A program made the translations under genes and the position numbers. Shown here piece after piece: positions 1 to 5,089 of a DNA stretch of 49,578 nucleotides. Positions within the stretch are counted from its first letter, which is position 1; each line of letters starts with the position of its first letter. Location of the stretch: NCBI GenBank assembly GCA_041665485.1, contig JBAYIT010000003.1, forward strand, positions 133,146-182,723, read 5' to 3'. The notes beneath the pieces were generated by a model. It saw nothing but the letters and a program-made list of their open reading frames with translations. It had not been told where the DNA came from and did no database searches. This DNA comes from Candidatus Shapirobacteria bacterium (lineage in GTDB: Bacteria; Patescibacteriota; Microgenomatia; UBA12405).

Positions 1-405
1 AAAAAATAGTTGTCTGTCTGCTTCTATCGTTTGTTTTATTGCTTCAATACATAAGTCGGCAATTATTAAGTTGTGTTTTATAAATTTCTCCGATCTTTGT
101 TTATCTTTATATATTCGCTTTATTAAGGTCGGACTTAGTTGGTTTTGTTTGTTTAAATAACGGATACTTTTTTTATCCAAGCAGTAGATTGCCGGTTTAG
201 TATTGTCTGGATATGATTTGCTGTATTTTTTATAAATAATATTGTTGTCAGATAAGTTTTTTAACCATTTATTGGTTTGGCCAGGATGTTTGTGTTTAAG
301 AATGGTTTGTATTTGAATTCGAGTTAGATAACGGAAACGGAAAAGATGTAGGAGTATAGATAGTTGTTGATTGGTAATAGATAGAAGAAGTGTAGTGGTG
401 GTCAT
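1..405 (-). CDS. replication-relaxation (Replic_Relax-like) family protein, C-terminus cut by window edge
   Basis: Absent from the ORF track because it runs off the left edge. ATG at 405..403, open in frame to position 1. The translation MTTTTLLLSITNQQLSILLHLFRFRYLTRIQIQTILKHKHPGQTNKWLKNL...IYCLDKKSIRYL fits the N-terminal winged-helix pattern of plasmid/ICE replication-relaxation proteins. Confidence 0.5.
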   Translation of the reverse strand, partial: MTTTTLLLSITNQQLSILLHLFRFRYLTRIQIQTILKHKHPGQTNKWLKNLSDNNIIYKKYSKSYPDNTKPAIYCLDKKSIRYLNKQNQLSPTLIKRIYKDKQRSEKFIKHNLIIADLCIEAIKQTIEADRQLFF

Positions 406-438
406 GTTAGTGAGTAGTGCGTGGTGTAATGCGGCCTG

Positions 439-503
439 TTTCTCTCTTCTTTCTTTATAAAGAGAAAGGGAGAAAATAAAATTTTACTTATCCCAATATT
501 GGG
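439..503. repeat. imperfect inverted repeat (439..475) plus perfect 12-bp palindrome CCCAATATTGGG (492..503)
   Basis: Read directly. TTTCTCTCTTCTTTCTTTA / TAAAGAGAAAGGGAGAAA arms and the palindrome lie in the 140-nt gap between the ATPase gene and the replication-relaxation gene. Confidence 0.6.
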
Positions 504-546
504 TATTAATTGAATTTTGTTTAGCGCAAAGAGCTGTGTGTAATAA

Positions 547-3072
547 TTAATGGAGTTTAGTAACTACCTTTGTCGTCTTTTTGTTGGTAGGTTGTGTTAC
601 CAGTCCCTTTGGGCGAGCGTACGGCTTGGCATAATTCATTCTCGAGGCTTCAATCACTTGCCTTACCCTATCGTGGTCAGATGAGAGGCCAAGAGGTACG
701 GTTTCACCTGAAAATGGTTCCTCGGAAGTCAAGGCGTTGATTTTAATATAAAAATGAAAAGAGGGGAGACTGGCAATTTCACCCTGAGTTACGTAAGGGT
801 AAAGTTGCGGCAACAATAACCGCTCATCATCAGGACTAGCTGTTCGAAAACATATCACTGTTCCCGTGTTGGCTAACGTAACATTGACCAAAGACTTATC
901 TTCTAGTTGCGATGTTGTCTGATGAGCCAAAATGGCATTTAGTTTATATTTCCGAGCCTCAGATAAAATTTGGGCAAACGATGGTGTGGCAAAGTTTTGA
1001 AATTCATCTACGTAAAGATAAAAATCTTTTCTCTCCTCAACATTGACTCTGGCACGCTTTAGCGTCGCTAACTGAATTTTAGTTAGAAGCAATATACCAA
1101 ACAGTTCTGATGTGTCTTCACCCAGTTTTCCCTTCGATAGATTAGCTATAAGTATCTTGCTGGAGTCCATAATATCGTCAAAATTAATTAAAGATTTAGG
1201 CTGTTCTAAAATTCTTTTAGCCGTTGGGGAAAATAAAAACCGGCCAATTTTGTTGGTGATGGGAGAAATCATTTGGACTTTTTGAAAATCACCCGCCTTA
1301 CCAAATTCATATTTCCAAAAGTCATTTAGGTTCTCATCGTCTAAAAAGTTAGTCACACTTTTTTGATATTGAGTATTAGACAAAAGTTTATGAACCGTAA
1401 ATAGTGTTGAATTGGGGATTGTGAAGGCTGTATATATAGTATTCCGCAAAATATACTCCATTCGTGGCCCTGAGAACTTATCCGGGAACAATTTATGAAA
1501 CAGAGAGATGATACTTTCAGTAATAAATTCTTTCTCTCTTAAACTGTCATCCTCAGACAAATTAGGGGTCAGTTCAAGTAAATTTACAGCTATCGGATTG
1601 GCAATATCGTCAGGATTAAAATAAATTACATCATTAATTCTTTCTGGTGGAATAATTCCCAATATTGTTTCTGCTAAATCTCCGTGCGGATCTAGTATTG
1701 CCATTCCCTTACCATGATCTATATCCTGTTTAATCATCGACAATAACAAGGTCGATTTACCAGTTCCAGTTGCTCCGATAATATACATATGGCGTCGTCT
1801 CTCATCCAAACTCAATCCAATTTTAGTAGTCGTCCCACCATAACTATTTTTACCAAAATAAACATCCAAAACTTTTGTTTGTTTTAGAGACAAAGGCGCT
1901 GGTAGTTCCTTACTTTGTTGTTTGACTAAATCCTCAGTTTTAGTCGTGGCAGTATATGGTAAGTGATAAATATCAGCAATTTCAGTCACCGACAAATATG
2001 GATTATTCAATAATCCATGAAGACGATTTTTAAATAAAAACAGGTCAAGCCGTTTTATTATCGGCATATTTATCTGTCTCTTTTTTATTAATGCCTGGTA
2101 ACTTGAATTTGAAAAAGAAGCCATAGATGTAACCATTCCTTTTGTCCGTAAATTCCTTTTCGACCCATTCGGACTGGTTACTAACAGCCTAATTGTCGTC
2201 TTAAAAAGTTGCTGGTCTAGTTTTCTTTTGACTTGCGCCTGAAGTTCTTGTTCATATGCATTATCAACCTTCTTTTGCCTTCCTCCTATTAGAGAGGAAA
2301 TAAAAGGACCCTCTTTACCTTCAGTAAAAACAAAAACAAGCACCCCAACTGGAAACATCAAAATATTAACCAAGATAGTAAATATCTGTTTACCAATATT
2401 TGTAGTTTTTAAGTAATTTAAATTAAAATAAAGTTCTTTATTATTGTAAATATAATTTGTTACAGTTTTTATATCTTTAATAGAAGATTTTTCTAAGGGT
2501 GTGGTAATTACCTGAAATGAAACCAGCTCATTTAGCTCAAGTTTTGTCATCGCCCCGGTTATATAAGCAATCGGATCATTATCTTCCAGTGATATCTGGC
2601 TTTTTAAAGGCAAGGCAAAATGGTTAGTCAATGCAAACTCAACAATTGAAGTAGTTTTTGTATTTTGTTCAGGCTTAACATAATCATCAACTTCTTTAAT
2701 AGTCATTCCCGATAAATAAGCCAACAGTTCGTGTTTAACAATCGAGGCATCATCTTCGTTAACCCGAACATAATATCGAATTCCTTCAACTCTTGATGAC
2801 GCGATTTCAAAAGAATAGTTCTTTGTTTCACCAACAATTCTTTGAAAAAACGATCGTTGCTTCGACAATCCGTGAATCAAAGAAAATAGTTGTTGAGTGC
2901 TACACGGTATCTGTTCAGTTTTCCTCAATGGGACAATCTCCAATATTATCTGTTTCTCGTGTAATTTTCTCCAAATTAAAACTAATTTAACCGCAATTTT
3001 AGTCACTAAAACTAAGCCAAGCATAAAAGCCATCACCATTACTGTTTTATTGACACTATCTAATAGGTTCAT
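547..3072 (-). CDS. membrane-anchored VirD4/TraD/TraG-like (type IV coupling protein-like) P-loop ATPase
   Basis: 841-aa ORF. N-terminal TM helices (VMVMAFMLGLVLVTKIAVKLVLIW, IFTILVNILMFPVGVLVFVF). Walker A in YIIGATGTGKSTLL, Walker B-like YLYVDEFQNF. Overall layout matches T4SS DNA-binding/coupling ATPases. Confidence 0.7.
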   Translation of the reverse strand: MNLLDSVNKTVMVMAFMLGLVLVTKIAVKLVLIWRKLHEKQIILEIVPLRKTEQIPCSTQQLFSLIHGLSKQRSFFQRIVGETKNYSFEIASSRVEGIRYYVRVNEDDASIVKHELLAYLSGMTIKEVDDYVKPEQNTKTTSIVEFALTNHFALPLKSQISLEDNDPIAYITGAMTKLELNELVSFQVITTPLEKSSIKDIKTVTNYIYNNKELYFNLNYLKTTNIGKQIFTILVNILMFPVGVLVFVFTEGKEGPFISSLIGGRQKKVDNAYEQELQAQVKRKLDQQLFKTTIRLLVTSPNGSKRNLRTKGMVTSMASFSNSSYQALIKKRQINMPIIKRLDLFLFKNRLHGLLNNPYLSVTEIADIYHLPYTATTKTEDLVKQQSKELPAPLSLKQTKVLDVYFGKNSYGGTTTKIGLSLDERRRHMYIIGATGTGKSTLLLSMIKQDIDHGKGMAILDPHGDLAETILGIIPPERINDVIYFNPDDIANPIAVNLLELTPNLSEDDSLREKEFITESIISLFHKLFPDKFSGPRMEYILRNTIYTAFTIPNSTLFTVHKLLSNTQYQKSVTNFLDDENLNDFWKYEFGKAGDFQKVQMISPITNKIGRFLFSPTAKRILEQPKSLINFDDIMDSSKILIANLSKGKLGEDTSELFGILLLTKIQLATLKRARVNVEERKDFYLYVDEFQNFATPSFAQILSEARKYKLNAILAHQTTSQLEDKSLVNVTLANTGTVICFRTASPDDERLLLPQLYPYVTQGEIASLPSFHFYIKINALTSEEPFSGETVPLGLSSDHDRVRQVIEASRMNYAKPYARPKGLVTQPTNKKTTKVVTKLH

Positions 3073-3145
3073 TTTTTAAAATAAGGCGGAAAGTAAGAAG
3101 TAAGTTAGTATATTACAAATATTTTTTATTAATAGCACCAAACTA

Positions 3146-3173
3146 TTGACCAAATTCCTACATTTGCTATACT
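3146..3173 (+). promoter_or_regulatory. candidate sigma70-type promoter for the small ORF and recombinase
   Basis: TTGACC (3146..3151), 16-nt spacer, TGcTATACT (extended -10, TATACT 3168..3173). Overlaps the palindrome CTATCC-ATATAC-GGATAG (3172..3189), a possible operator. Confidence 0.35.
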
Positions 3174-3202
3174 ATCCATATACGGATAGCTAGCATAATA
3201 GT

Positions 3203-3358
3203 ATGAAAACAAAACGAAAATATAAAAGTAGAAATATGACGGAAGCAACCAACATAACAATGGAGGACAGGCTAAGAATATTAGCCAACGTTATTGTCGA
3301 CAGAATTATGGAAGATCAGCAAGGGAAATTAACAAACCAAGGAGGGGATAATGGCTGA
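3203..3358 (+). CDS. small basic hypothetical protein (51 aa), possible recombinase accessory factor
   Basis: Below the ORF-track size cut-off. ATG at 3203, translation MKTKRKYKSRNMTEATNITMEDRLRILANVIVDRIMEDQQGKLTNQGGDNG. Its stop overlaps the recombinase start (ATGGCTGA, 8-nt overlap), suggesting translational coupling. No homology recognised. Confidence 0.3.
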   Translation: MKTKRKYKSRNMTEATNITMEDRLRILANVIVDRIMEDQQGKLTNQGGDNG

Positions 3359-5036
3359 ATTCAACATTGTTAGTGAAAATGCTGTCGTAGCCATTCGAGT
3401 TTCCTCAATTAAACAAGGACTTCAAGGGGATTCTCCAGAGGCTCAAAAAGAACAAATCGAACAATTTGCTAAAACCAGAAATATCACTATCAAAAAGTTT
3501 TTTATATTTATGGAATCTGCCTCCAAAGAAGAACAACCCGTCCAAGAGGCGATTGATTATTGTAAAAATCCAAATAACGGCATTCAATTGTTTATCATTA
3601 AGTCAATTGACCGGTTCACTAGGGGAGGTTCCTATTTGTACGATCATCTAAAAATGCAATTGACTAAAGAAAATGTAAAGTTAGTTGATATTTATGGGAT
3701 TATTGGTAGTCAAAAAGTCAACACTTTAGAACATCTTGGCTTTGAATATAACTGGAGTGTCTATAGCCCAACAAATAAAGCTGAAATTCTCGAAGCAGAG
3801 AGAGCTAAGGATGAAATGAGAGATATTATGTCTCGCATGATTGGAGCCGAAATCAGATACGTAAAATTAGGTTTTAGAGTTCGACGACCACCCTTTGGAT
3901 ACATTAATGAGAAGGTTGAGACATCGCATGGCAAAAGAGTTGTCCTCAAACCTCACCCCGAAGAATCGCAATGGATTCTTAAAATGTACGACCTAAGATT
4001 AAGAGGCACCATGACCGACGCCCAAATTATTGATGAACTTAATAAACTCGGATATCAATCTCGCAAACAATACATTAGAAACCCCAAGGACAGAACAAAA
4101 ATAATTGGCGAAAGGGGAGGAGGGCAATTGAATTTGAAGCAGTTTTTAAGATATATGGAAAATCCTATCTATGCCGGAATAAACATTGAAAAATGGACAA
4201 ACGGCCTACCTGTTAAAGCAAAATTTAACGGTATTGTTACCGTAAAACTATTTAACAAAGCCAATAACGATAAAGTAAAGATAGTTGAACACAATGGTGA
4301 GTTAAAAATGATAAAAAGGTTACCTCCAGAATATTTACTAAGGAAACAATCAAAAAGCCCTAGATTTCCTTATAAACAATTTATCCTCTGCCCGCATTGT
4401 CGAAAACCGCTTTATGGCAGTGCCTCAAGAGGAAAACTGGGCAAGCATTATCCGGCTTATCACTGTTATCGAGATAAGCACTATTTTCGGGTTGTTTCTT
4501 CAGAATTAGAAAATACGGTCAAATCTTTTGTTAAAAATTTAGATATCAACAAAGAATACGTTGAAGAGCTTAAAAAATATGTAATCGATATCTGGAACAA
4601 AAGACAAACAGAAGTTGTGACTGATAATGCCAAAATTGAAGACAAGGTCGCAGAGCTTAGAATTCAAGCCAGAGCCACTGCCGATAAAATCAAGTTTTTG
4701 AATTCGGAAGTTGCCATAAAATATCTTGAAGAAGACCTCGTTGGAATTGAAAAGCAGATTATCAATCTCCAGCAAGGCAAAGACGTGGAACCTCAAATCA
4801 ACCAAAATATGGAAGTTATTATGGAAAACGTTGGATATTTTTTGGAACACCTCGAAGAACTAATGGTAGGTTCCAAGAATCCGTTAAAACAGGCAGCCTA
4901 TTTTGGCCTCATTTTTGAACAAACACCGACCTATCAAGAACTGCTCTTTGGAACCCCCAAGTTACAACCGTATCTTACGCTAAAAGATCATTTTCAAAAC
5001 CTACCATTACCAATAGGTGACCCCACGGGGAATTGA
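3351..5036 (+). CDS. large serine recombinase (resolvase/invertase N-domain + recombinase domain + zinc ribbon + coiled coil)
   Basis: N-terminus VAIRVSSIKQGLQGDSPEAQ carries the catalytic Ser motif (cf. RVSTxxQ). Central domain FGYINEK...RLRGTMTDAQIIDELNKLGY. Cys/His cluster CPHCRKPLYGS...YHCYRDKHY. Strong SD AAGGAGGGG before the ATG. Confidence 0.85.
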   Translation: MAEFNIVSENAVVAIRVSSIKQGLQGDSPEAQKEQIEQFAKTRNITIKKFFIFMESASKEEQPVQEAIDYCKNPNNGIQLFIIKSIDRFTRGGSYLYDHLKMQLTKENVKLVDIYGIIGSQKVNTLEHLGFEYNWSVYSPTNKAEILEAERAKDEMRDIMSRMIGAEIRYVKLGFRVRRPPFGYINEKVETSHGKRVVLKPHPEESQWILKMYDLRLRGTMTDAQIIDELNKLGYQSRKQYIRNPKDRTKIIGERGGGQLNLKQFLRYMENPIYAGINIEKWTNGLPVKAKFNGIVTVKLFNKANNDKVKIVEHNGELKMIKRLPPEYLLRKQSKSPRFPYKQFILCPHCRKPLYGSASRGKLGKHYPAYHCYRDKHYFRVVSSELENTVKSFVKNLDINKEYVEELKKYVIDIWNKRQTEVVTDNAKIEDKVAELRIQARATADKIKFLNSEVAIKYLEEDLVGIEKQIINLQQGKDVEPQINQNMEVIMENVGYFLEHLEELMVGSKNPLKQAAYFGLIFEQTPTYQELLFGTPKLQPYLTLKDHFQNLPLPIGDPTGN

Positions 5037-5089
5037 ACCCCGGTTACCAGGATGAGAACCTGATGTCCTAGCCACTAGACGATGGGGCC
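5018..5089 (-). tRNA. tRNA-Glu (anticodon CUC)
   Basis: Hand-folded cloverleaf of GGCCCCATCGTCTAGTGGCTAGGACATCAGGTTCTCATCCTGGTAACCGGGGTTCAATTCCCCGTGGGGTCA. Acceptor GGCCCCA/TGGGGTC, D arm GTCT/GGAC, anticodon stem TCAGG/CCTGG with loop TTCTCAT, T arm CGGGG-TTCAATT-CCCCG, discriminator A. CC follows, but no full CCA is encoded. Confidence 0.85.

Follow-up and report, generated by a model that had tools for sequence, protein, structure and literature searches.

The window analysed here is a stretch of 49,578 nucleotides from a Candidatus Shapirobacteria contig, and its first 5,089 positions hold a compact group of mobile-DNA genes that meets a tRNA-Glu gene. The features at this end of the window are as follows.

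1..405, minus strand: first 135 of the 248 codons of a putative MOBC-type relaxase (Replic_Relax, PD-(D/E)XK-like; PF13814)
547..3072, minus strand: VirD4/TraD-like type IV coupling protein of 841 aa with an N-terminal membrane anchor (Pfam)
3203..3358, plus strand: conserved ORF of 51 codons; its stop and the start of the recombinase gene overlap by 8 nt
3351..5036, plus strand: divergent large serine recombinase (LSR) of 561 aa, integrated-state form (Resolvase)
5017..5020, no strand: GTGA core of attR, the putative crossover and right element boundary
5016..5089, minus strand: intact tRNA-Glu(CTC), the host half (B') of attR (ARAGORN)

A sequence-only reading of this DNA had proposed an integrated mobile element built around a replication-relaxation gene, an 841-aa VirD4/TraD-like ATPase and a 561-aa serine recombinase, and profile searches upheld all three family assignments. 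At 1..405 an open frame runs off the edge of the stretch and scores above the PF13814 cut-off, the ATPase exceeds the cut-offs of TrwB_AAD_bind, TraG-D_C and T4SS-DNA_transf, and the recombinase matches the Resolvase domain (PF00239) at 36.8 bits. The ordinary genes expected beyond the tRNA were also found (PMT_2, DUF6909, dprA, UPF0102 and comM), and the context tRNA-Glu-PMT_2-DUF6909-dprA is orthologous in four other genomes (G001, G101, G110, G113). The cluster had further been taken to end exactly at the tRNA. The junction does lie at tRNA-Glu, but the integrase gene crosses it and is split by integration, the LSR frame running 21 nt into the tRNA gene's 3' end. Only two of the genome's 50 tRNA genes have a 3' end entered by a convergent ORF of 100 aa or longer, a serine recombinase in either case; the overlap is therefore not a chance one.

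Profile searching also matched the LSR to the catalytic domain of TP901-1 integrase. Across 22 homologues, R16 and S18 are invariant, as are the zinc-ribbon residues C347, C350 and C372, with H371 invariant or nearly so. The Pfam Recombinase and Zn_ribbon_recom profiles were undetected in the 561-aa protein at E < 0.01; hhalign aligned it with the canonical LSR of a sister element over 478 columns (probability 98.9%), and an AlphaFold2 (AF2) model of a relative contains a helix of ~80 residues forming a coiled coil and matches the cryo-EM LSR-attL complexes 9y66, 9dxf and 9dxd with probability 1.0. The 561-aa form consists of 556 element-encoded residues followed by DPTGN and a stop, both supplied by the antisense strand of the tRNA. 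Across Patescibacteria, 51 of the 62 homologous loci with enough flanking sequence likewise have the ORF ending at the 3' end of a tRNA on the opposite strand. The 51-codon ORF precedes the recombinase in four of six related elements and carries the motif E(E/D)R(L/I)xI(F/L)AN(L/V)I(I/V)DRI. Family searches with it gave no match, and it may be a small regulator or a directionality factor; no recombination directionality factor was otherwise identified for the element.

Leftward extension along the contig gave the other junction together with further transfer genes, which establishes the three genes as the right end of a bounded element, as the sequence-only reading had supposed. The element measures 32,605 bp (C3:105557-138165), the window holding its right-hand ~5 kb, and its GC content is 35.7% against 40.8% for the genome. 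Both junctions and the flanking core genes lie on one 183-kb contig of a metagenome-assembled genome with 3.6% contamination. The attL core (C3:105557-105560; L005:7412-7415) overlaps the stop codon of a phosphoglucomutase gene 32,605 bp left of the attR core. Phosphoglucomutase itself was considered as a core left flank and rejected, being present in two of 26 relatives: it lies outside the element yet is itself accessory. GTGA is the sole exact identity between the two junctions, with host-specific sequence to the left of the attL core and, to its right, a conserved frame of 45 codons that occupies the whole gap up to the start codon of a phospholipase D-like (PLD) nuclease gene.

This 45-residue frame behaves as the missing tail of the integrase. 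A further 20 genomes of the order contain orphan matches at E <= 1e-4; host-specific sequence precedes every one of them, frequently together with an in-frame stop. Tail and recombinase co-occur (12/16 versus 8/115; Fisher p = 5.6e-9). The tail is 76% identical to one from another genus, its divergence by codon position (0.41/0.26/0.54) is as expected if it is coding, and PLD follows it in 26 of 38 loci. All nine attR/attL pairs taken from single genomes are in phase (chance about 5e-5), and their first codons change together with the tRNA that is targeted (Glu, Lys, Ser or Asp). At metagenome locus L198, the C-terminal part of a recombinase, the tail and PLD follow one another in an attP-like arrangement and one uninterrupted frame; the copy lacks the catalytic N-terminus, so that this joint is a relic rather than an active circle. 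In the AF2 model, the att-encoded residues form a disordered linker followed by a helix and a hairpin. A mixed MAFFT alignment of recombinases and tails misplaced the tail on the FLEHLEELL helix and was left out of the folding. Since the tail is encoded at the far left end and keeps the recombinase's phase, attP falls inside the integrase gene, and the enzyme is truncated upon integration.

Alternatively, the 45-codon frame could be an independent small gene or leader peptide coupled to PLD, the recombinase simply ending inside the tRNA. In keeping with this, a possible start codon (TTG, GTG or CTG) usually stands immediately ahead of the conserved LEP/VEP motif, the tail stop overlaps the PLD start as in translational coupling, and a word-based protein database search with the L198 tail region returned no full-length joined protein; a tail HMM run over 80 genome loci likewise gave no match within 4 kb of any recombinase, leaving L198 as the sole joint. 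We nevertheless regard this alternative as very improbable, given the nine in-phase pairs and the single frame at L198. Moreover, none of the tRNA-abutting recombinase ORFs examined (about 17 in one set, 51 such loci in another) has its own stop before the tRNA, while EPTVP, which lies upstream of the putative internal start, is conserved as protein and co-varies with the tRNA.

The split integrase gene also bears on where the crossover lies. At the left boundary, neither blastn-short nor a repeat search recovered the tRNA-Glu 3' end as a direct repeat, and a Smith-Waterman comparison against shuffled sequence was not significant for it, which a core of only 4 bp explains. An 8-nt match (ATTACCAA) near both element ends was dismissed as chance. 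A crossover in the T-loop had been suggested by tRNA 3' fragments of ~20 nt duplicated in L111 and L124 and was set aside, as phase and co-variation in the nine pairs place the core at the tip of the tRNA. Similarity between att sites would reach past the true core because the P' arm appears to mimic the tRNA.

From left to right, the element is organized as follows.

Left end: attL, the 45-codon orphan integrase tail, a Nuc-like PLD nuclease, small-molecule and nucleotide enzymes, and an HTH protein
Next: a DUF2130 protein with a PDC-S06-type SMC-like candidate defence protein, and a C5-methylase/NgoFVII/Vsr restriction-modification system
Next: an M23 wall hydrolase, a split VirB4, a PrgI/VirB3-like protein, a pilin-VirB6-like polytopic protein and a VirB2-like pilin
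Next: a 7.5-kb cargo block (APH-like kinases, GFO oxidoreductase, HIT protein), a 276-aa membrane protein and DUF2958
Right end: MOBC relaxase, VirD4 coupling protein, 51-aa ORF, large serine recombinase and attR/tRNA-Glu

A sister element of the same architecture lies in the same genome between tRNA-Gln and tRNA-Leu (C2:192938-221080). Its site is unoccupied in four genomes from four genera (G004, G013, G002, G005), in which the two tRNA genes stand 9-725 nt apart. The two LSRs and two MOBC proteins of the genome all fall within these two elements. A prophage was considered and rejected, phage structural genes being absent from every Pfam scan, and an Rfam search with a repeated 41-nt hairpin motif matched no family.

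Assignment of the transfer genes drew on Pfam, NCBIfam and PADLOC. The complete relaxase gene (C3:132804-133550; L004:14659-15405) encodes 248 aa and extends 342 nt beyond the left edge of the window. Its score against PF13814, the profile corresponding to the MobC relaxase class in CONJscan (PMC5357655), is 25.8-27 bits and thus just above the cut-off of 25.3, and five orthologues from related elements score 33-53 bits over profile positions 3-186 of 191. An alignment of six orthologues comprises an N-terminal wHTH and a conserved PD...(D/E) core: the D of a PD motif never varies and an acidic position follows ~20 residues later, with no evident canonical (D/E)XK lysine. The VirD4-like protein also weakly matches NCBIfam TraD/CD1115 and has transmembrane-like segments at residues 6-34 and 230-248. 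The VirB4 ATPase carries a TraG P-loop (89 bits) and is accompanied by a separate TrsD/TraD-like N-terminal piece; of two T4SS_pilin (VirB2-like) proteins, one is fused to a polytopic VirB6-like domain with 7-8 transmembrane segments, and a PrgI-like (PrgI/VirB3-like) protein and an M23 hydrolase complete the block. The sequence-only reading had seen no type IV secretion system (T4SS) channel genes. This is true within the window, but the channel genes are found 10-15 kb further left, still on this contig and within the element. Judged by its gene content, the element thus carries a T4SS of its own, of predicted monoderm type, and is not a coupling-protein element devoid of a channel.

A mobilizable element that is not self-transmissible (an IME), borrowing its channel from a chromosomal T4SS or the sister element, would share much of this gene content. 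No VirB8-like component was recognized among the genes of the element, the VirB6 call rests on the pilin domain and the 7-8 transmembrane segments only, and streptococcal IME_Class_8 is characterized by a module of relaxase, VirD4 and serine integrase (PMC5357655); elsewhere, the genome encodes a separate VirB4 with pilins (a non-ICE T4SS locus) as well as further VirB4 and VirD4 paralogues. Set against this, the element has its own VirB4, two pilins, PrgI-like protein and wall hydrolase in one operon-like block, and in G101, G096 and G004 that block accompanies the integrase module. Dependence on a borrowed channel consequently appears improbable, and we favour a self-transmissible element.

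Comparison across the order documents horizontal spread. Core synteny, the pattern that the sequence-only reading had named as contrary to a mobile element, does not describe this region: the recombinase is present in 22 of 132 genomes and at identities far above those of core genes, reaching 81% in another genus where core proteins are 45-58% identical. In G101 and G096, VirB4 reaches 84-92% identity; the corresponding figures are 75-81% for its N-terminal piece, 63-84% for the pilins and 47-77% for VirD4, which is 70-77% identical in elements from other genera. T4SS genes that are 75-92% identical across genera whose core is ~50% identical indicate recent transfer. The proposed comparison with relatives showed the interval itself to be variable, but no empty tRNA-Glu site was found at the nucleotide level. 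ArgRS abuts DUF6909 in G031 and G033, members of the same order, and in G001, the sole genome of the same genus, the interval from FeS to tRNA-Glu holds 7 kb of different genes. The DUF6909 loci of G008, G010 and G019 are paralogues that lack the tRNA or PMT_2, the site in G061 is a decayed relic rather than empty, and the nearest genome shares only ~54% identity in its core proteins.

An ICE remnant, fixed and no longer mobile, with its T4SS co-opted for an epibiotic lifestyle (host contact, DNA or protein uptake), would resemble this locus in several respects. Patescibacteria T4SS were found in a survey to be chromosomal, mostly without relaxases and probably repurposed (PMC12102498), the protein database search gave no joined, excised-form integrase, and relics do exist, namely C-terminal recombinase fragments in G061, G113 and G014 and the N-terminally truncated copy in L198. 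In this element, however, every transfer-module and recombination gene examined forms an intact long ORF, and the two GTGA cores and the tail frame are undamaged, with the cross-genus tail identity given above. Relaxase, coupling protein and integrase have been kept together as a module; the T4SS identities given above point to recent transfer, and the separate VirB4 and pilins elsewhere in the genome could serve as the 'core' T4SS. A fixed remnant is accordingly the less likely, though not negligible, reading.

Collectively, positions 1-5020 very probably form the right-hand end of an integrative and conjugative element (ICE) of 32.6 kb, carried by the Shapirobacteria-like genome of an uncultured member of the Patescibacteria, with an integrase gene that integration has split. 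In the mechanism we propose, the recombinase would use the 4-bp GTGA core to link attP, inside the 3' end of the integrase gene, with attB, at the discriminator/CCA end of tRNA-Glu, so that tRNA-Glu is left whole and the integrase gene is split. The circular form would encode 601 aa, that is, 556 residues followed by an att-encoded flexible linker and a helix/beta-hairpin tail, and the chromosomal form 561 aa ending in tRNA-antisense codons; the P' arm would mimic the acceptor and T-arm of the target tRNA. The predicted attP joint reads ...CTACCATTACCAATAG-GTGA-GCCCACTGTCCCGATTTTGGAACCC... (also as ...CCATTACCAATAGGTGAGCCCACTGTCCCG...) and the predicted repaired attB reads ...CTTATTGCCAGTTGGCT-GTGA-CCCCACGGGGAATTGAACC... 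(also as ...GCCAGTTGGCTGTGACCCCACGGGG...). After excision, the relaxase would nick a putative oriT and VirD4 would deliver the DNA into the monoderm-type T4SS that the element encodes. Gene content, family assignments, the boundaries of the element, its horizontal spread and the tail's conservation and phase are established by the sequences; we infer the chemistry of recombination, excision in the present day, transfer by conjugation and any part that the truncation plays in regulation.

Among known systems, Tn5397/TndX and Tn4451/TnpX-type elements are Firmicutes elements driven by large serine recombinases. The element resembles the LSR-driven ICEs of Firmicutes and streptococcal IME_Class_8 described by Coluzzi et al. 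2017 (PMC5357655) in having a compact module of VirD4, MobC/PF13814 relaxase and serine integrase at one end and monoderm (MPF-FATA-like) transfer genes. It differs in several ways: the host belongs to the Patescibacteria and the module comes with a full T4SS, the LSR is so divergent that Pfam recognizes nothing but its Resolvase domain, insertion is directed at a tRNA gene's 3' tip rather than at a protein-coding gene or GA dinucleotide, and attP lies inside the integrase gene. With the phage and ICE LSRs (A118/LI, TP901-1, phiC31, Bxb1) the enzyme shares the Ser/Arg motif, recombinase domain, zinc ribbon, long coiled coil and a short exact core compatible with a 2-bp staggered crossover. Unlike these, it has an extra C-terminal helical subdomain, linker and tail, only one attB half-site (B', the tRNA) is conserved, the P' arm appears to mimic the tRNA, and tRNA-gene targeting is family-wide.

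The gene-splitting logic has its closest likeness in the SSV-type ('suicidal') tyrosine integrases of archaeal viruses and plasmids, in which attP lies in the integrase gene, the target is a tRNA and integration splits the ORF. The arrangement described here likewise combines attP in the integrase gene, a tRNA target and ORF parts at both element ends, but only this logic is common to both, the present enzyme being a serine recombinase and its hosts not archaeal. Whereas much of the enzyme is cut off in the SSV type, the loss here is confined to the 45-residue tail beyond a flexible linker, and the integrated copy retains all its catalytic and DNA-binding domains.

Within Patescibacteria, the latest T4SS survey (Quinonero-Coronel et al. 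2025, PMC12102498) reported relaxases from just 103 genomes, read these systems as repurposed and mostly not conjugative, and left recombinases, integrases and tRNA genes unmentioned. The clusters it describes share with this element a monoderm-type VirB4, VirB2-like pilins, PrgI-like and VirB6-like proteins, a T4CP and a chromosomal location in ultra-small genomes; here, in contrast, they lie inside a bounded, horizontally spreading element with a MOBC relaxase beside the T4CP. The conclusion that such systems are probably not conjugative was drawn because relaxases seemed to be missing (PMC12102498).

No published description of this element was found in the literature. In its components it is an ICE with an LSR of known kinds, distinguished by an integrase gene split at a tRNA. 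To our knowledge, the only other integrase genes cut by integration belong to archaeal tyrosine integrases, which are unrelated. Patescibacteria account for a sizeable part of bacterial diversity, and we know of almost nothing on gene exchange among them. With integrase, relaxase, coupling protein and T4SS in one bounded element, conjugation in the CPR becomes a testable question.

More tentatively, two linked readings extend beyond this locus. Patescibacteria may harbour a phylum-wide conjugative mobilome driven by one dedicated LSR clade, which in this search numbers at least 249 clusters (50% identity) and would combine recognition of the acceptor and T-arm of tRNA genes with an attP inside the integrase's own gene. 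Because attP lies inside the coding sequence, the topology of the element would rewrite the enzyme, and the contrast between a 601-aa circle form and a 561-aa tail-less form could set the direction of integration or excision, without or alongside a directionality factor. If so, many 'orphan' Patescibacteria T4SS and VirD4 genes would be conjugation machinery whose MOBC relaxases are too divergent for standard screens. The integrase would be of interest as a member of a family specialized on tRNA ends, with an attP that mimics the target tRNA and a gene cut by integration, and such enzymes could become programmable, tRNA-directed integration tools for organisms with almost no genetics. The cargo, including the restriction-modification system, the PDC-S06 candidate defence protein and the kinase and oxidoreductase genes, would represent what such elements move between ultra-small cells.

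A mobile element with relaxase, coupling ATPase and serine recombinase genes had been proposed by the sequence-only reading for the left end of the window, which covers contig C3, positions 133146-182723 (C3:133146-182723), in a 1.14-Mb genome of 10 contigs. Pfam matches to Replic_Relax, to T4SS-DNA_transf with TraG-D_C and to Resolvase bear out the three assignments, and the ORF listing and ARAGORN agree with the layout claimed at tRNA-Glu. The finding is real and its mobile-element interpretation is supported. The same reading saw no T4SS channel genes; this is true of the window only, because leftward extension, a check it had suggested, revealed further transfer genes on the same contig, where the 32.6-kb candidate ICE (C3:105557-138165) has its own predicted monoderm-type T4SS.

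Features of the window, then of contig C3 to its left (L004 and L005 denote stretches of the contig read leftwards; subtracting 15000 from an L004 position gives the window position)
1-405, minus: putative relaxase start, open-ended frame (ORF listing; Pfam Replic_Relax)
547-3072, minus: VirD4-like coupling protein, 841 aa (Pfam TrwB_AAD_bind, TraG-D_C, T4SS-DNA_transf)
3203-3358: 51-aa ORF (ORF listing)
3351-5036, plus: recombinase, 561 aa (Pfam Resolvase)
5016-5089, minus: tRNA-Glu(CTC) (ARAGORN)
Right of tRNA-Glu: PMT_2, DUF6909, dprA, UPF0102, comM (Pfam)
Left of window: DUF2958
Left of window: 276-aa membrane protein
Cargo block: two APH-like kinases, GFO/IDH/MocA oxidoreductase, HIT protein, two unknowns
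Left of window: VirB2-type pilin, 112 aa
VirB6-like protein, 435 aa: pilin domain, then 7-8 membrane segments
Left of window: PrgI/VirB3-like protein
VirB4 in two parts: 206-aa N-terminal piece and 599-aa ATPase
Left of window: M23 peptidase
L005:17808-19920 to L004:3-350: Vsr, NgoFVII-type endonuclease and C5-methylase, a defence cargo trio
L005:13414-17222: SMC-like ATPase, 847 aa, beside DUF2130 protein (PADLOC candidate PDC-S06, 412 bits)
Left part of element: HTH protein
Left part of element: NUDIX, HD, AAA_33 and GNAT enzymes
Left end of element: PLD-family nuclease, 158 aa
Past left end: phosphoglucomutase, FeS-assembly protein, ArgRS, Lon

The frame at 1-405 is the start of a putative relaxase gene of 248 aa, whose own PF13814 score, 25.8 bits, barely exceeds the cut-off (25.3); five orthologues reach 33-53 bits and cover nearly the whole profile. 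PF13814 is the MobC relaxase class in CONJscan, with a PD-(D/E)XK fold (PMC5357655, PMC3424549), and in the orthologue alignment the catalytic motif is recognisable in part. The 51-aa ORF upstream of the integrase is conserved in 4 of 6 related elements. Profile searches, also suggested earlier, found exactly two large serine recombinases (LSRs) and two MOBC proteins genome-wide, all inside this element and a paralogous sister element on contig C2; other VirB4, VirD4 and pilin paralogues elsewhere in the genome are accompanied by neither.

Genomic comparison supports insertion and spread. The element has 35.7% GC, the genome 40.8%. ArgRS abuts DUF6909 in two genomes of the same order (G031 and G033), and the sole same-genus genome (G001) keeps both Lon-ArgRS-FeS and tRNA-Glu-PMT_2-DUF6909-dprA, with 7 kb of unrelated genes in between, one of them for a 1359-aa HTH-STAND NTPase. 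Of 132 genomes in the order, 22 have the recombinase, with 81% identity in another genus and 64% in another family. The same backbone recurs in G101, G096, G110 and G004, with identities of 80-92% for VirB4, 75-81% for its N-terminal piece, 63-84% for pilins and 47-77% for VirD4; the host flank proteins PMT_2 and DprA are only ~53% identical. For want of a close relative, these genomes offer no nucleotide-level empty tRNA-Glu site. From sequence comparison, we infer that the element may excise and transfer.

Three further observations concern these loci. The phosphoglucomutase gene beside attL (L005:5968-7416; C3:104113-105561) is itself accessory, occurring in 2 of 26 relatives. A decayed relic in G061 (L060:10380-10660, contig C3 of that genome) joins the recombinase's last 50 codons to a 24-nt tRNA-Glu 3' fragment, 1 kb from an intact tRNA-Glu(CTC)-PMT_2-dprA locus. 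At the orthologous site of G001 (L018:14671-14855), a tRNA-Glu matching the source's tRNA-Glu(CTC) is broken in the anticodon loop by ~110 nt holding another complete tRNA-Glu(CTC), whose acceptor stem differs and which is flanked on both sides by a 13-bp inverted repeat; the arrangement may have arisen by nesting or replacement of a tRNA gene, or as a mini-insertion.

A PDB search with a 22-homologue recombinase profile matched catalytic domains only (TP901-1 integrase), and profile-profile comparison with the sister element's canonical LSR (Resolvase, Recombinase and Zn_ribbon_recom) gave a probability of 98.9% over 478 columns. R16, S18 and the zinc-ribbon residues show little or no variation among homologues. 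A relative modelled with AF2 (mean pLDDT 77) has a recombinase domain, zinc ribbon, ~80-residue coiled coil and extra helical subdomain, and in structure searches the model fits serine integrase-attL complexes best (probability 1.0). The family is large, with 249 clusters (50% identity, E <= 1e-30). Public records label homologous contigs as Candidatus Shapirobacteria, Levybacteria, Roizmanbacteria, WWE3, Saccharibacteria or 'Patescibacteria group', which places the source organism among CPR/Patescibacteria of the Microgenomates/Shapirobacteria type.

Convergent reading into a tRNA 3' end affects 2 of the genome's 50 tRNAs, both by recombinases. Among 80 public loci, 51 of the 62 with enough flank have an opposite-strand tRNA at the recombinase ORF end (Glu 23, Gln 11, Lys 8, Arg 3, Val 2, Ser 2, Asn 1, Asp 1). 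Where the tRNA is present, none of the homologues examined has its own stop before it; the frame continues until the antisense strand of the tRNA supplies its first stop, overlapping by 21-74 nt.

The sole exact identity of the element's two ends is GTGA (window 5017-5020 and L005:7412-7415). This core at the tRNA tip replaced a T-loop crossover first drawn from ~20-nt duplicated tRNA 3' fragments in the public Patescibacteria contigs L111 and L124. When the ends are joined at GTGA, the recombinase frame stays open for 45 further codons (...PLPIG-EPTVPILEPLISSILQLYEKLKQLGFTYYQGKIVVIDFEIDNQHV*; chance ~0.04 by a base-composition estimate) and overlaps the PLD start by 8 nt. In the sister element, likewise, joining at core CTTTGGTG adds 35 codons. 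The phosphoglucomutase TGA stop falls within the core, so a reconstructed empty site would end that gene directly against the tRNA-Glu 3' end. Between recombinase end and tRNA-Glu, L124:2086-2345 and L111:5655-5870 hold two or three tandem att-region copies (core plus tRNA-mimic, duplicated terminator-like units), which resemble tandem arrays or the scars of repeated integration.

The order has 20 other genomes with matches to the 45-aa tail (E <= 1e-4). Each match is a short orphan frame behind host sequence that is not shared, in many cases with a stop 1-12 codons upstream. The tail tends to occur in the same genomes as the recombinase (Fisher p = 5.6e-9). Divergence of the tail by codon position (0.41/0.26/0.54) is greatest at the third, as in coding sequence, and recombinase and tail frames are in phase in all nine genomes with both junctions available. 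Codons immediately beyond the core agree with the tRNA targeted (GAG/GAC-CCx for Glu, GCG-CCT for Lys, GGG-CTC for Ser, GGG-CAC for Asp), and TGGAACCC, which encodes the tail's conserved (L/V)-E-P, mimics the T-loop sequence TCGAACCC. Of 38 loci, 26 have PLD after the tail. On metagenome contig L198 the recombinase (residue 194 onward), the tail and a PLD gene of 49% identity run on without a break, apparently as in attP, but the recombinase there has no catalytic domain. In the AF2 model the att-encoded residues form a disordered linker (pLDDT < 50) and the tail a helix plus beta-hairpin. These findings argue that the tail belongs to the recombinase; integration would therefore replace its 45 residues with five tRNA-encoded ones (601 aa to 561 aa), keeping the tRNA whole and the phosphoglucomutase stop codon intact. 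Joined recombinase-tail proteins did not appear in a database search. The tail motif (N/I)LE(H/P)L(F/I)xS(I/L) (tail residues 6-16) resembles, and was aligned by MAFFT with, the recombinase helix YFLEHLEELLL (residues ~495-505), which could reflect an internal repeat or a competing helix.

The sister element (28.1 kb; PLD ... M23-VirB4 ... 276-aa protein, DUF2958, relaxase, VirD4, LSR) sits between tRNA-Gln(TTG) and tRNA-Leu(GAG); G004, G013, G002 and G005, where these lie 9-725 nt apart, are clear empty sites. The two elements' proteins are otherwise 21-43% identical; between C3:131358-132739 and C2:213822-215439, 1 kb of DNA over the 276-aa membrane protein gene is 84% identical, with 75-81% around DUF2958, which suggests recent recombination between the co-resident elements. 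A 41-nt double-hairpin motif (TTTTCACTCTTCGAGTGGCGCCTGGGGCGCC...) without an Rfam match flanks the 7.5-kb cargo block (L004:5669-5709 and L004:13227-13267; C3:123814 and C3:131372) and recurs downstream of the sister's 276-aa gene (C2:213837); it could be a terminator or module-exchange site.

Firmicutes are known to carry ICEs with LSRs. The present element belongs among known kinds, as an ICE with an LSR, and departs from them by tRNA-tip targeting and an attP inside the integrase gene. Its relaxase-VirD4-serine integrase module is shared with streptococcal IME_Class_8 (PMC5357655). Gene-splitting by integration is known for archaeal SSV-type integrases (PMC8371274), but those are tyrosine integrases, whereas a serine integrase is split here. 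A 2025 survey of Patescibacteria T4SSs leaves recombinases, integrases and tRNA unmentioned (PMC12102498), and our literature search found no published account of serine-integrase ICEs at tRNA genes in Patescibacteria. The element would represent an ICE in a phylum where conjugation had been doubted.
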